Source: an archaeon (GTDB lineage: Archaea > Iainarchaeota > Iainarchaeia > Iainarchaeales > 1-14-0-10-31-34). Taken from it: DNA of 32,000 bases. Each line of letters starts with the position of its first letter. Position 1 is the first letter of the stretch. The position numbers were made by a program, and so were the translations under genes. Under the pieces are notes generated by a model, which saw only the letters and a program-made list of their open reading frames with translations, had not been told where the DNA came from and made no database searches. The DNA lies in the NCBI GenBank assembly GCA_024277355.1, contig JAJRVL010000004.1:270001-302000 (forward strand), read 5' to 3'. Below are positions 186 to 5,175 of the stretch, piece by piece.

Positions 186-438
186 TATTTCAGCTATTAC
201 TTCACTTCCTCCAGACAAAAAAATTCCCCCTGATTCAATTCTAAAAGAAAAAAATAATCTCAGAAAACTTTAAAAACTTAATTAAATAAATTCAGAAATT
301 CAAAAAAAAATATTGTTTTAAAAAAAACATTAAAAAAAATAAGAAATAATTAATTAAAATTTAGTTTAGAAATAACTTTAATTAATGCAACAACAAAAAG
401 AATAACTTTAATTACTTATTATTCTTTTTTAATATCAG

Positions 439-663
439 ATGTTTGTCAAGACAATAAAAAAAATATTTAAAACTTTAAAAAAAATAGTTTCTGGTTTAAT
501 TAATTCACTTCTTCTTTTATTAGTTTATTTCACTGCAGTGGCTTTAACTTCAATTTTTGCAAAAATTCTTGGGAAAAAATTCCTTGAAACAAAAGCAAAA
601 AAAAGCTACTGGCAGGAAATGAAATTAAACACAAAAAAAGAAGATTATTACAGGCAATTCTGA
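439..663 (+). CDS. small single-TM membrane protein, SxtJ-like C-terminal region
   Basis: 74 aa with one hydrophobic helix (LINSLLLLLVYFTAVALTSIFA). It then reads GKKFLETKAKKSYWQE...YYRQF, which resembles my recollection of the SxtJ-family C-terminus (GKDPL..KSYW..NQF). First gene of the carbamoyltransferase cassette. Confidence 0.45.
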   Translation: MFVKTIKKIFKTLKKIVSGLINSLLLLLVYFTAVALTSIFAKILGKKFLETKAKKSYWQEMKLNTKKEDYYRQF

Positions 664-673
664 GGAAAAAAAA

Positions 674-1537
674 ATGAATGCAGGAGAAAAAGTAAAAGAA
701 TTTTATAACAAAACACCTTTTCCTGGTTTTGAATTAAAAAAATTTAACAGCAAAAAAGAACTCAAAATTACTGCTTCTTCTTTTGCTGAAACATTAGACA
801 GAAGTATCCCTGAAAATGCTTCAGTAATTGATGTAGGAACAGGAACAGGCCAGTTAGCAGGATTACTTTCATTAAGAAGAAAAAAAGTTATGGGAATAGA
901 TTTCTCTGAAAATTCTTTGAATCAAGCAAAAAAACTAAAAGAAAAATTAAAATTAAATTCACTGGAATTAAAAAAAATTGATTTATTAAATGACAAAGAA
1001 ATTGAAGCAATAGGAAAATTTGATTATGTTTTATGTTTAGGAGTATTACAGCACACTGCAAATCCATATAAAGGATTTACAAACCTGCTGAAACTACTAA
1101 AACCTAAAGGATTTATTGCAGTAGGATTATACAACAAGTTTGGAAGAATTCCACTGAAAATAAGAAAAGTTCTGACAAAAACAGTTTTCAAAGACAATGA
1201 AAAAATAAAAAAACATTTTATTTCAATGCAGTTGGATTCACTTAAAGATAAAAAAAAAACTGAAGCATGGTGGCAGGACCAGTATTTTCATCCATTTGAA
1301 TCAACTCATTTTTTAGGAGAAGTTTTAGACTGGTTTAAAAAAAATAAAATAGAATTTTATCAGACAATTCCTTCATTGAATTTTTTTGACGAACAAAAAC
1401 TGGAAATTGCAGGAGTATGGAACAAATACAATGAAACAAAACCTTCTTTTTTAAAAAGAAATTTAATTCAGTTAAGCTGGATTTGGAAAACACAAAAAGA
1501 AGGCGGATATTGGATTACTTTCGGGAGAAAAAAATGA
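674..1537 (+). CDS. class I SAM-dependent methyltransferase
   Basis: 287 aa with SAM motif I VIDVGTGTGQLAG, followed by GIDFS and a Rossmann-type layout. Its stop TGA overlaps the next start (ATGA at 1534-1537). Confidence 0.8.
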   Translation: MNAGEKVKEFYNKTPFPGFELKKFNSKKELKITASSFAETLDRSIPENASVIDVGTGTGQLAGLLSLRRKKVMGIDFSENSLNQAKKLKEKLKLNSLELKKIDLLNDKEIEAIGKFDYVLCLGVLQHTANPYKGFTNLLKLLKPKGFIAVGLYNKFGRIPLKIRKVLTKTVFKDNEKIKKHFISMQLDSLKDKKKTEAWWQDQYFHPFESTHFLGEVLDWFKKNKIEFYQTIPSLNFFDEQKLEIAGVWNKYNETKPSFLKRNLIQLSWIWKTQKEGGYWITFGRKK

Positions 1538-3255
1538 CTTATATTCTGGGATTAAGCTGCTATTACCATGACTCTTCCGCCTGCCTGCTTAAAAACGGAA
1601 AAATAATTGCAGCAGCAGAAGAAGAAAGATTTACAAGAAAAAAACACGACAACTCTTTTCCTTTTAATGCAATAACATTCTGCTTAAAAAAAGAAAAAAT
1701 CACAATACAAGAAATAAACTTTATTGCTTTTTATTAAAAACCTTTAATTAAATACGAAAGAATTCTTTCACAATACATTGAAACTTTTCCTTTAGGTTTT
1801 GTGAATTTTATTAAGAATATGCCTTTATGGCTGACAGAAAAATTAAAAGTAAGAGAAACAATCAAAAAAAAACTTAAATTTAAAGGAGACATTTTTTTTA
1901 TTGAACACCACTTATCACACGCAGCAAGTGCATTTCTTTGTTCTCCTTTTCAGGAAGCAGCAATACTTACAATTGACGGAGTAGGCGAATGGACTACAAC
2001 TGCTTTTGGAACAGGAACAGGAAATAAAATAAATTTAATAAAAGAAATAAGGTTTCCTCATTCAATTGGATTACTTTATTCAACAATTACAGCTTATTTA
2101 GGTTTCAGAGTAAATAATTCTGAATACAAAATAATGGGTTTGTCAGCTTACGGCAACATGAACAAAAAAAGAAATGAATATTATGAAAAACTAAAAAAAA
2201 TAATTGAAATAAAAGAAGACGGAAGCTTTAAACTTGACATGAAATATTTTGTTTTTCATTACGCAGAAAAAATGCCTTCAAGAAAATTATGTGAACTACT
2301 TAAAGGAAAAATAAGAAAACCAAAAGAAAAATTAACTCAAAGACACAAAGACATTGCAGCTGCCTTACAATTAATCACAGAAGAAACAATAATAAAAATT
2401 TTAAATAATGTTTTTGAAAAAACAAAAAAAGAAAATTTAGTTTTAGCAGGAGGAGTAGCATTAAACAGTGTAAGCAATGGAAAAATCTTAAAAAACACAA
2501 AATTCAAAAACATCTGGATTCAGCCTAATGCTTCAGATGGAGGAGCAAGTTTAGGAGCAGCATTATATGTATTTAATTCAATTTTAAGCAATGCAAGAAA
2601 TTATGAAATGCAGAATGATTTTTTAGGACCTGAATATTCTTCTGAAGAAATCAAAAGCATTCTTGAAAAAAACAAAATAAATTATTTTAAATTCAAAAAC
2701 GAAACAGAACTAATAAAAAAAACTGCAGAATTAATTTATCAAAATAAAGTTGTCGGCTGGTTTCAGGGAAAAATGGAATTTGGGCCAAGAGCTTTAGGAA
2801 ACAGAAGCATTATAGCTAACCCATGTAATCCAGAAATGAAAAAAATATTAAATGAAAAAGTTAAACATCGAGAATCATTTAGGCCTTTTGCACCCGCTGT
2901 ATGCAAAGAAAATGCAGTACAATTTTTTGAATGCAGTCCCTTACAAAAACCAGCTGAATTTATGTTAATGACTTTTCCAGTTAAAAAAGAATTTGAAAAA
3001 AAAATTCCTTCCGCGATTCATGTCGATAATACATCAAGAATTCAGGCAATAGACAAAAAAAACAATGAATTGTATTATAATTTAATTAAAGAATTTGAAA
3101 AATTTTCAGGAATACCCATTTTAATTAACACTTCATTTAATGTTAAAGGAGAACCAATTGTCTGTTCACCTCAGGATGCATTAAATTGTTTCATGAAAAC
3201 AGAAATTGATTTTCTTATTTTAGAAAAATACTTAATTGAAAAGAAAAAAAACTAA
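1534..3255 (+). pseudogene. carbamoyltransferase (NodU/CmcH/TobZ family) interrupted by a single in-frame TAA at 1735-1737
   Basis: Track ORFs 1483..1737 and 1801..3255 are in the same frame. Joined from ATG 1534 they give about 573 codons with family motifs: ILGLSCYYHDSSA, HHLSHAASAF, GGVALNSVSNG, NASDGGASLGAAL, FGPRALGNRSIIANP, RESFRPFAP, HVDNTSRIQ, NTSFNVKGEPIV. The stop falls inside FY[*]KP, where the family has FY-E/D-KP. Confidence 0.85.
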
Positions 3256-3263
3256 GTGAAAAA

Positions 3264-4313
3264 ATGGAAAAAGAAAAATTAAAGGAATTTGGAAAAAATT
3301 TTGCTTTACTTTTAATTACAGTCATTTTATTTCTTTTTTTTCTTGAATTAACTTTAAGGATTTTTCCATGGTTGTTTGGACAGCAGATACAAAATCAATT
3401 AATTACAAAATTCCATTCAGGAGAAACAGGAATATACAGTTATGATTCAAATATAGGAATGTTACTGCTAAAACCTGGAATTGAAACTGAAGTTTTCAGG
3501 AACGGGCATTACTGGATTCATAAAACAGACTCAAAAGGATTCAGAAATGAAAAAGAAATTAATCAAGCAGACATTATTCTGCTTGGAGACTCAATAATTT
3601 ACGGAACAGGACTAAACTATAAAAAAACTACAGCATACTTCCTGCAAAAAGAAACAGGATTAACAGTATTCAATTTATCAAGAGAAGGTGATTGTTCTTT
3701 TGAACAAAAATTCCTGTTAAACAAATATGCTCCTGAATTAAAACCAAAACATATTTTTTATTTTTTCTTTGAAAACGATTTATATGACTTAAAAATAAAA
3801 TTAACAAAAAAAGAAATGAATTATTTTATTCAAGAACAGTCAATTGATGATTTTTCTGTTAAAAGAAAAAAAATTACAGGAACAGAAACCGCTAATTTAT
3901 ACAAAAAGTTAGTTGAATACTCTTTTGTTGCAAGAACAATTCATATTTTAATTCACTTAAAAGAAGACCAAATAAAATTAACAAACAAAATTGCAAACAA
4001 AATCATTGACACAAACGGAATTGAATGGCAGTACACAGAAAAAGCAATAAAGCAGATGAAAAAATTCTCTGATTCAATCAATTCAGAATTCATTTTAGTT
4101 CCACTGACAAACGAAAAAAACCAGCAGGAAAAACTAAAACAAATTGCAGAAGAAAATGGAATTCCTTTAATTGAAACAGAAGAATTAATTGGTTATAATC
4201 AGATTCCTACAATAAAAAAAGAATATGCTTTGGAAAGAGACTGGCATTTAAATGAAAAAGGACATGAAAAACTTGCAGAAATTTTATTGAATTACCTTAA
4301 AAAAAATAAATAA
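3264..4313 (+). CDS. membrane-anchored SGNH/GDSL-type hydrolase
   Basis: 349 aa with an N-terminal TM helix (FALLLITVILFLFFLELTL). Block I is ILLGDSIIYGTG and the C-terminal block V-like sequence is RDWHLNEKGH (DxxH). Confidence 0.6.
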   Translation: MEKEKLKEFGKNFALLLITVILFLFFLELTLRIFPWLFGQQIQNQLITKFHSGETGIYSYDSNIGMLLLKPGIETEVFRNGHYWIHKTDSKGFRNEKEINQADIILLGDSIIYGTGLNYKKTTAYFLQKETGLTVFNLSREGDCSFEQKFLLNKYAPELKPKHIFYFFFENDLYDLKIKLTKKEMNYFIQEQSIDDFSVKRKKITGTETANLYKKLVEYSFVARTIHILIHLKEDQIKLTNKIANKIIDTNGIEWQYTEKAIKQMKKFSDSINSEFILVPLTNEKNQQEKLKQIAEENGIPLIETEELIGYNQIPTIKKEYALERDWHLNEKGHEKLAEILLNYLKKNK

Positions 4314-4357
4314 TCAATTAAGCAATTATTATTAATATAAAAGAACTTTATTTTTTT

Positions 4358-4519
4358 ATGGAAAAAAACAAGCCTTATCTAAAAGAATTATGGGATTTTC
4401 TTAAAGTCAGAAAAAAATGGTGGCTGGCTCCAATAATCATAATGCTGATTTTAGTTGGAATAATAATTATAATAGGAAACAACAGTGTCGTTTCAACTTT
4501 TGTTTATGCCTTGTTTTAG
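4358..4519 (+). CDS. DUF5989-family small membrane protein (53 aa, missed by ORF track)
   Basis: Own translation: MEKNKPYLKELWDFLKVRKKWWLAPIIIMLILVGIIIIIGNNSVVSTFVYALF*. It matches the remembered DUF5989 pattern ELW.FL..RKKWWL.PII......G........S....F.Y.LF. Ends at TAG 4517-4519. Confidence 0.75.
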   Translation: MEKNKPYLKELWDFLKVRKKWWLAPIIIMLILVGIIIIIGNNSVVSTFVYALF

Positions 4520-4675: not shown

Positions 4676-4729
4676 TAAAACACCCTATTAACTGAGTTTT
4701 AATTAGTATTTAAATGTTTAGAAAAATAA

Positions 4730-4802
4730 TAGCTCCGAGGAGATTCGAACTCCTGTCAACGGGTTCAAAGCCCGTCATCCTTGGCCACTAGACTACGGAG
4801 CT
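4730..4802 (-). tRNA. tRNA-Gln(UUG)
   Basis: Hand-folded cloverleaf: AGCUCCG UA GUCU AGUGGCCAA GGAU G ACGGG CUUUGAA CCCGU UGAC AGGAG UUCGAAU CUCCU CGGAGCU A. The A1:U72 pair is typical of archaeal tRNA-Gln. No encoded CCA. Confidence 0.9.
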
Positions 4803-4864
4803 AGCAAACCGTAGTCTAAATTTTGTTCAACCTTTTTTTAAAAGGTTGCTAGACTACGGAGCTA
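4788..4864 (-). repeat. 16-nt direct repeat (tRNA-Gln nt 1-15 plus the preceding U) flanking a palindrome and an antisense 9-mer
   Basis: CTAGACTACGGAGCTA occurs at 4788-4803 and at 4849-4864. Between the copies, in minus sense: CAACCUUUUAAAAAAAGGUUG (perfect hairpin) AACAAAAUUU AGACUACGG UUUGC. AGACUACGG is the exact complement of tRNA nt 5-13 (CCGUAGUCU). Confidence 0.85.
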
Positions 4865-5007
4865 TTAAATTAATTAATAAAATAAAAATAGTCTTATAAA
4901 TAATTTAATTTCAATAAGTTTAAATTGGTTTACTTAAAGTACTTTTTATTACTGTTTGTGTTTACAGTCCGGCTAAATAAAGTTAATAGCAAGTATGCAC
5001 TCAAACA

Positions 5008-5175
5008 GCAAAATATTTTCAAAAGTTTTTAGTAAAGCTTTTTTTGAAAAAGGTTTAGTTTGTGTTTGCAAAGCAAACCGTTTTTGATAAAACTTTTTTC
5101 TAAAAAGTTTGTTTTAATAAAACTTTTTCCAAAAAGGATTATGTTTTTGATAAAACTTTTTTCTAAAAAGTTTTT
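5008..5175. repeat. locus L1: cluster of A/T palindromic R units (about 31 nt), homologous in inverted orientation to 22049-22135
   Basis: Units lie at about 5034-5056, 5081-5110, 5111-5141 and 5142-5175. Consensus is TTTTTGATAAAACTTTTTTCTAAAAAGTTT, with a GTTTGC-AAA-GCAAAC hairpin at 5064-5078. The reverse complement of about 5020-5110 aligns by eye to 22049-22133 at roughly 85 percent identity. Confidence 0.8.
5142..5175 (+). promoter_or_regulatory. TTGA-box plus 10-bp perfect A/T hairpin ending 1 nt before tRNA-Ile
   Basis: Sequence TGTTTTTGATAAAACTTTTTTCTAAAAAGTTTTT|G. The stem pairs 5152-5161 with 5165-5174. TTGATAAAA is centred about 26 nt upstream of the mature 5' end, where an archaeal TATA box would sit. 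A related element precedes tRNA-Thr. Confidence 0.4.

Follow-up and report, generated by a model that had tools for sequence, protein, structure and literature searches.

Near the start of a 32,000-nt stretch of archaeal DNA (hereafter the window, C2:270001-302000), five genes on one strand encode a small SxtJ-like membrane protein, a methyltransferase, a carbamoyltransferase (CT), a membrane-anchored SGNH enzyme and a DUF5989 microprotein. We read them as a DPANN-archaeal copy of the widespread sxtI-J-K-L-type cassette, with a methyltransferase added, that would relay a carbamoyl group across the membrane; this reading is tentative, and we place it slightly short of an even chance. Membrane-associated O-carbamoylation of a glycan, the function put forward in an earlier sequence-only reading of this DNA, is supported as the most reasonable one. 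The observations of that reading are confirmed in part and its interpretation is likewise supported in part. In this assembly the CT breaks off after 67 codons, which probably leaves the pathway off or impaired, provided that the stop codon (TAA) is real and is not read through.

Results

Layout of the cassette

The genome that holds the window has 1.13 Mb in 11 contigs, with 28% GC. Archaeal small-subunit (SSU) and large-subunit (LSU) rRNA models top their clans in a genome scan (1403.6 bits for the SSU model), Nop5 and fibrillarin are also encoded within the window, and a genome of the same genus, G001, carries the NCBI label Candidatus Diapherotrites, a DPANN lineage. The five open reading frames (ORFs) lie on the plus strand at 439-663, 674-1537, 1534-3255, 3264-4313 and 4358-4519, and the spacings between them are 10, -4, 8 and 44 nt, in agreement with the tight same-strand packing described earlier. 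The start/stop overlap noted there is present as well: the methyltransferase stop and the CT start share the ATGA at 1534-1537. Shine-Dalgarno-like GAGG and GGGAG motifs are found 5' of the second and third genes. We considered that the cassette might be a compositional island and rejected this, as its GC content of 24-30% equals that of the genome.

The carbamoyltransferase and its in-frame stop

The assignment of the third gene to the NodU/CmcH-type carbamoyltransferases holds for the family, not for a single open frame. Interrupted genes were scanned as separate pieces on either side of the stop. The CT piece at 1534-1734 matches the Pfam model Carbam_trans_N at profile positions 2-66 (E 1.8e-15), while the piece at 1738-3255 matches the same model at 73-346 (E 4.5e-63) and Carbam_trans_C at 1-170 (E 3.7e-73); the two pieces thus match both models, with profile coordinates that run on from one piece to the next. 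The translation shows HxxxH and DGxGE motifs, and the solved structures nearest to the large piece are 7xb6, GdmN, NovN and TobZ (E 2e-90 to 6e-68). A TobZ-type O-carbamoyltransferase would be expected to have an uninterrupted frame of about 570-600 amino acids (aa), and this the window gene does not have: an in-frame TAA stands at 1735-1737, after codon 67. In the ORF listing the gene appears as two frames, 1483-1737 and 1801-3255; the public annotation has a truncated product of 478 aa, compared with 575-609 aa in homologs.

When the two pieces were aligned as separate rows against 116 close homologs, the TAA took up exactly one alignment column, at which a single invariant sense residue stands in all 116. 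At 17 of 207 columns, the stop included, the gene lacks the conserved residue; for the intact copy in G001 the figure is 14, and the clade median is 1. Apart from the stop there is no frameshift, and the other four cassette genes are intact. As the CT is otherwise no more divergent than the intact G001 copy, the lesion, if real, would therefore be recent. Translation resuming at the next GTG or ATG would yield a CT short of roughly 90-95 residues at the start of the Kae1-like domain, and such a CT is unlikely to be active.

The window gene is not the only one of its kind in this genome. We screened for same-frame segments joined by one stop and then scanned ten such junctions on both sides. 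Three more conserved genes, encoding TctA, RtcA and NrdD (loci L053, L057 and L060; Table 1), are split by a TAA past which the Pfam profile continues. At each of these stop columns every relative with both flanks alignable has exactly one sense codon. Thus at least four conserved genes, the CT included, carry a private TAA. Seven further long same-frame pairs are present in the genome (L047, L049, L052, L054, L056, L058 and L059). Reassignment of the stop codon was considered and rejected. TAA closes 510 of 756 long frames in the genome and is its main stop, ARAGORN found no suppressor tRNA in the genome, and the residue that relatives have at the interrupted column differs from gene to gene among the four, which argues against a recoded TAA. 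The private TAAs may reflect nonsense decay, errors of consensus or assembly, or leaky termination, and whether the CT is truly inactive we place at roughly even odds.

DUF5989 and the SGNH enzyme

The last gene of the cassette encodes the DUF5989 microprotein that had been proposed there, with a match to PF19451 at 74.7 bits (E 5.7e-21) against a cut-off of 27, and is single-copy in the genome. Its C-terminus reads F-V-Y-A-L-F and then stops, an exact fit to the motif FXYXXF. The same tail ends 107 of 121 DUF5989 relatives, and the tyrosine is found in every tail variant listed. Such an ending is rare in this genome: only 12 of 7,911 frames of at least 40 aa have it, and the other 11 look like off-frame AT-rich segments. 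The charge of the protein is +3 before the helix and 0 after it, which suggests a topology with the N-terminus inside and the C-terminus outside. From its size and position, DUF5989 would correspond to SxtK.

The gene before it encodes a membrane-anchored SGNH protein, as had been claimed. The product exceeds the Lipase_GDSL cut-off (26.9 versus 23.6 bits), and its AlphaFold model (predicted local distance difference test score, pLDDT, 89.6) has an N-terminal helix at residues 2-33 and, after it, an SGNH core with two additions, a beta-hairpin and a helical insertion. Ser110, Asn171/Asp172 and His328 are invariant in 24 homologs. In G001 the SGNH-DUF5989 pair is tandemly duplicated as a unit (L010:7206-9698), and the window SGNH and DUF5989 are closest to the second of these pairs, at 60% and 70% identity.

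The SxtJ-like protein and its missing partner

An adjacent SxtJ protein (PF19588) is expected of an sxtIJKL-type cassette, and direct model search does not find one: the product of 439-663 has no match to PF19588 at E <= 0.1, and the model matches nothing anywhere in the genome at E <= 10. The product shares 49% identity with its counterpart in G001 (E 5e-22) and belongs to a family of about 323 representatives, most of them 74-85 aa long; judged by this conservation, it is a real gene. Some members of the family reach 146-152 aa and have an extra two-helix N-terminal part.

We compared the family by hhalign with a reference made of three bacterial PF19588 proteins, all of them from CT-SxtJ-DUF5989 triads. 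The archaeal 83-aa family aligned end to end with residues 77-139 of the 139 of SxtJ (probability 95.1%, E 3e-8), and an alignment of fused and split forms gave a probability of 96.2% (E 2e-9). Control comparisons gave 0.4% (E 0.14) for the 83-aa family against DUF5989 and 0.1% (E 0.42) for DUF5989 against SxtJ. The match covers the last helix and a basic tail, in which SYW is conserved and the C-terminus is aromatic. By profile comparison, then, the SxtJ-like label stands as remote homology to the C-terminal third of SxtJ only, and fails as a match to the SxtJ model itself.

In other archaea a two-helix ORF of 67 aa precedes the SxtJ-C-like ORF; the G001 copy lies at L010:4211-4414. No significant tblastn match to it was found at 219..438 of the window or elsewhere in the window's genome. 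That this ORF is the N-terminal part of SxtJ was not borne out by similarity, as the 67-aa family gave a probability of 1.8% (E 0.028) against SxtJ; the fused forms of 146-152 aa leave it as a guess from position and architecture.

The methyltransferase

The second gene encodes a class I methyltransferase, in keeping with its first description. Its product matches Methyltransf_31, Methyltransf_12, Methyltransf_11 and Methyltransf_25 in Pfam (E 5e-19 to 2e-13), and the nearest solved structures are protein-lysine and ubiquinone methyltransferases, which share the Rossmann core only. The gene is absent from most other cassettes inspected. G105 and G106, genomes of another family, have full-length homologs (56-61% identity) placed between CT and DUF5989; we therefore rejected the idea that the gene is specific to the genus, and by its distribution it is a recurrent accessory of the cassette. 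Two further proposals were dropped. NodS is not among the 17 Pfam matches of the methyltransferase, which speaks against a NodS-like partner of a NodU-like enzyme, and an apparent frameshift of the gene in G001, taken at first as a second decaying gene, was retracted because the break is a run of 13 N in the assembly.

Distribution and neighbourhood

The window CT is nearer to archaeal CTs than to the bacterial ones sampled from triads (62-71% versus 45-48% identity). The archaeal homologs are abundant, and those that are named carry the labels Diapherotrites, Pacearchaeota, Nanoarchaeota or Nanoarchaeia, with one Methanoperedens label, whereas the DUF5989 relatives at 64-77% identity carry Woesearchaeota or Nanoarchaeota labels. 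DUF5989 scores above the cut-off in 5 of 61 relatives and in 19 of 215 genomes of the phylum, and matches at E <= 0.001 in 14 of 79 genera; in the phylum it is nearly always found beside a CT gene, an SGNH gene or both. The archaeal setting had been regarded as unexpected, a view that is not upheld by DPANN labels on the nearest relatives of both proteins and by these counts. Co-localisation of CT, SxtJ and DUF5989, at times with SGNH, had been put forward for bacteria, and is evident in three bacterial CT-SxtJ-DUF5989 triads and in many archaeal loci. In a survey of 20 archaeal DUF5989 loci of about 3 kb, CT adjoins DUF5989 in 15 and SGNH does so in 11. An SxtJ-C-like ORF stands directly upstream of CT in six of the eight loci in which the CT 5' end is in range. 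The archaeal layouts are co-directional or divergent, and the gene order is shuffled.

The cassettes of relatives lie among glycan genes, encoding SIS isomerase, phosphomannomutase, epimerase, a Wzx-type flippase, GT2 and GT4 glycosyltransferases and STT3. STT3/AglB is encoded in the window's genome on another contig, and therefore N-glycans exist there as possible acceptors. Inositol-1-phosphate synthase and a CDP-alcohol phosphatidyltransferase are encoded at 25641-27340 (minus strand) of the window, 21 kb from the cassette; a gene for such a synthase lies two genes upstream of another archaeal cassette (L014:2775-3860), and one for a CDP-alcohol phosphatidyltransferase directly 3' of DUF5989 in two bacterial loci (L019:5169-5777 among them). 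These positions may hint at a polar-lipid head group as acceptor.

Within the genus, the cassette is absent from four of six genomes. G001 has a syntenic locus with an intact CT and the 67-aa ORF. G002 keeps both flanks, namely tRNA-Gln followed after about 740 bp by a homolog of the 542-aa gene upstream of the cassette in the window, and has neither the cassette nor the antiporter-like gene next to it, thus presenting a clean empty site. An integrative element with tRNA-derived repeats was considered and rejected, since the cassette is not bounded by any pair of repeats. The only duplicated fragment of tRNA-Gln is a 21-nt direct repeat (4788-4808 and 4849-4869, 90% identity), which copies the 5' end of the tRNA 61 nt away, and the relative orientation of tRNA-Gln is reversed in G002; the repeat and the reversal suggest a past rearrangement at this tRNA gene.

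Carbamate kinase and donor supply

The gene at 8152-9060 had been named as a carbamate kinase that could supply carbamoyl phosphate. Its identity is secure, as the product passes the arcC equivalog cut-off (387.7 versus 358.25 bits), and CTs of the TobZ family use carbamoyl phosphate, as established for TobZ. Its linkage to the cassette is another matter. Two tRNAs and four genes on mixed strands set arcC apart from the cassette, arcC holds the same locus in G002, which has no cassette, and it is not adjacent to any other cassette inspected, archaeal or bacterial. Also encoded in the genome are a CarB-type carbamoyl-phosphate synthetase and two proteins of the ornithine/aspartate transcarbamoylase (OTCase/ATCase) family. 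It is thus very improbable that the cassette is self-contained, with the nearby kinase as its dedicated source of carbamoyl phosphate.

Other features of the window

A class II aminoacyl-tRNA synthetase is split at 16116-17497 (minus strand): the OB anticodon-binding part has its own ORF at 17075-17497, the catalytic core another at 16116-17096, and these two overlap by 22 nt in different frames. A truncated synthetase paralog (14645-15364) lies next to a complete one (13125-14426). The Rfam tRNA match at 14469-14634 (minus strand) spans 166 nt and is not reported in the ARAGORN default scan, and it is for these reasons probably an intron-containing archaeal tRNA. A 31-nt unit with a short palindrome is present in four copies at 5025-5173, in the spacer just upstream of tRNA-Ile. 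A 931-aa ORF at 28209-31004 (plus strand) is followed by one of 185 aa, and neither has a Pfam match (E <= 1e-4 for the 931-aa ORF).

Table 1. Features of the cassette region (window coordinates) and TAA-split genes elsewhere in the genome (contig coordinates)
Feature	Position	Strand	Basis or detail
AT-rich spacer, presumed promoter region	219..438	.	stops in all three frames
74-aa single-helix membrane protein, equivalent of the SxtJ C-terminal third	439..663	+	hhalign profile comparison
Class I S-adenosylmethionine (SAM)-dependent methyltransferase, 287 aa	674..1537	+	Pfam
CT, first 67 codons	1534..1734	+	Carbam_trans_N positions 2-66
In-frame TAA breaking CT	1735..1737	+	translation, homolog alignment
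CT, remaining 505 codons: rest of Kae1-like domain and YrdC-like domain	1738..3255	+	Pfam
Membrane-anchored SGNH/GDSL enzyme, 349 aa	3264..4313	+	Lipase_GDSL, AlphaFold model
DUF5989 microprotein, 53 aa, one helix	4358..4519	+	PF19451
tRNA-Gln, downstream edge of the block variably present in the genus	4729..4803	-	ARAGORN, Rfam
TctA split	C2:524366		profile 1-217, then 238-422
RtcA split	C11:58238		RTC 3-169, then RTC_insert and RTC 171-221
NrdD split	C2:410822		profile 1-457, then 460-526

Discussion

The cassette resembles sxtI-sxtJ-sxtK-sxtL, in which an O-carbamoyltransferase, two small membrane proteins and a GDSL/SGNH protein are encoded side by side, and it shares with that type the CT domains, an adjacent DUF5989, an adjacent GDSL/SGNH protein and co-localisation in other genomes. 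Unlike the sxt clusters, it comes without a toxin scaffold pathway, has a methyltransferase inserted and has an interrupted CT, and its SxtJ equivalent is the C-terminal third alone, a protein of 74 aa that fails PF19588. With TobZ, NodU, CmcH, GdmN and NovN the CT shares the two-domain architecture of Carbam_trans_N and Carbam_trans_C; unlike them, CTs of the window type are always linked to membrane microproteins, and the window copy has the in-frame stop.

In the mechanism that we propose, the cytoplasmic CT would convert carbamoyl phosphate and ATP to carbamoyl-AMP, as TobZ does. Aided by the SxtJ-like membrane protein, the carbamoyl group would pass to the invariant tyrosine of the DUF5989 FXYXXF tail, on the outer side of the membrane. 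The anchored SGNH protein would then take it onto its catalytic serine and hand it to an exported glycan, for instance an S-layer glycan, an N-glycan or a lipid-linked sugar, and the methyltransferase would add a second decoration. Such a relay would do for carbamoyl what the Dlt and PatAB relays do for acyl groups, with no MBOAT or AT3 protein involved. In these systems DltX, and MBOAT proteins such as PatA, end outside the cytoplasm in an FXYXXF acyl-shuttle tail, whose tyrosine passes the acyl group to an SGNH transferase (PMC12148441). Like Dlt (DltA/C/B/X/D) and PatA/PatB, the cassette has an FXYXXF microprotein with a C-terminus predicted at the outer face, an anchored SGNH protein and a cytoplasmic adenylating enzyme. 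It differs from them in lacking a carrier protein and in the group moved, which would be carbamoyl instead of acetyl or D-alanyl; the proposed membrane partner, the SxtJ-like protein, is unrelated and tiny. Of the features of an acyl-shuttle relay, the FXYXXF tail with its invariant tyrosine is present, and the MBOAT/AT3 loader is not: neither MBOAT (PF03062) nor AT3 (PF01757) has a match in this 96%-complete genome. That DUF5989 is the carbamoyl-carrying counterpart of DltX, and forms with the SxtJ-type protein an MBOAT/AT3-independent relay from the adenylating CT to the outer-face SGNH protein, is a narrower proposal that we regard as possible but doubtful.

A question remains, is the case for a relay strong enough in this genome? 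Several points weigh against it. To our knowledge, there is no biochemical evidence for any member of the cassette, and a literature search returned no paper that mentions DUF5989 or a carbamoyl acyl shuttle; nor did it return one that ties carbamoylation to DPANN glycosylation. There is no plausible conduit across the membrane, as the SxtJ-like protein has one helix and its two-helix partner of 67 aa is missing. Housekeeping genes surround the window's cassette, with no glycan cluster there. A fold search with the SGNH model finds generic SGNH esterases (9-16% identity) rather than DltD or PatB, and the charges flanking its anchor (+1/+1) do not discriminate between topologies. Neither is the SGNH partner a single orthologous family, the window copy being 16-18% identical to the type found at L014 and L017. 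In addition, no SGNH gene adjoins any of the three bacterial triads.

This last point also favours the main rival, direct carbamoylation in the cytoplasm. Here the CT would modify a nucleotide- or lipid-linked sugar on the cytoplasmic face, the small membrane proteins would only tether or regulate it, and the SGNH protein would be an esterase removing O-acyl or carbamoyl groups. Removal of such groups was reportedly proposed earlier for the GDSL protein SxtL. The characterised relatives TobZ, GdmN and NovN all act directly on soluble acceptors, and the SGNH fold matches hydrolytic esterases (TesA, sialate and xylan O-acetylesterases). Assembly of the lipopolysaccharide (LPS) core occurs on the cytoplasmic face. 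The rival is modelled on Pseudomonas WapO (PA5005), a putative carbamoyltransferase for heptose II, whose assigned role is the carbamoylation of heptose while the LPS core is assembled (PMC8005017). The same protein serves as a precedent for O-carbamoylation of a cell-surface glycan by the CT family, although its description includes no SxtJ, DUF5989 or SGNH partners (PMC8005017). However, cytoplasmic tailoring leaves unexplained why the exact FXYXXF tail with its invariant tyrosine is kept in archaea and bacteria, why DUF5989 is paired with SGNH even when CT is on the other strand, and why SGNH and DUF5989 were duplicated as a unit in G001. On balance we consider it rather unlikely. Still less can be said for a tailoring module of a small-molecule cluster of alkaloid or aminoglycoside-like type. 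The same four gene types are indeed consecutive in sxt clusters, yet there are no core biosynthetic genes in the window, the neighbours are housekeeping genes, the genome has only 1.13 Mb and the cassettes of relatives lie in glycan loci, so that such a module is highly improbable.

Another alternative does not concern the function of the cassette but its state in this organism, namely that it is a decaying remnant, with a nonsense codon that is real and inactivating, the 67-aa partner lost and nothing made here. The TAA stands at an invariant column, TAA is a normal stop in this genome and no suppressor tRNA was found; the 67-aa ORF of G001 and other archaea is absent, most genomes of the genus are without the cassette, with a clean empty site in G002, and the private TAAs in TctA, RtcA and NrdD fit an AT-biased decay. 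On the other hand, the CT shows no extra damage (17 departures against 14 in G001) and no frameshift, and the four remaining genes are intact. An interrupted nrdD is hard to square with viability, a hint that at least some of the TAAs are assembly errors or are tolerated. We regard decay as a serious possibility that falls just below the balance point.

The window copy is, then, a slightly reduced, possibly broken archaeal member of a known cassette whose function is unexplained. With its enzyme gene interrupted, it is ill suited as a starting copy for experiments. What it adds to the family is fourfold. In DPANN archaea the cassette is a regular, if patchy, feature; the SxtJ equivalent of archaea is either split or truncated; the methyltransferase recurs as an add-on; and genomes of one genus differ at a single site in whether they have the cassette block. 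Ever since the sxt cluster was described, microproteins of the SxtJ and SxtK types have stood beside carbamoyltransferases with no role assigned. If DUF5989 does carry the carbamoyl group, the archaeal versions would represent the minimal membrane part of the relay, with SxtJ split and, in the window, reduced to a single-helix protein of 74 aa that has a conserved aromatic tail of its own. A tyrosine-shuttle relay, if true, would thus give SxtJ/SxtK-type microproteins a function and would make carbamoylation a further decoration of exported polymers.

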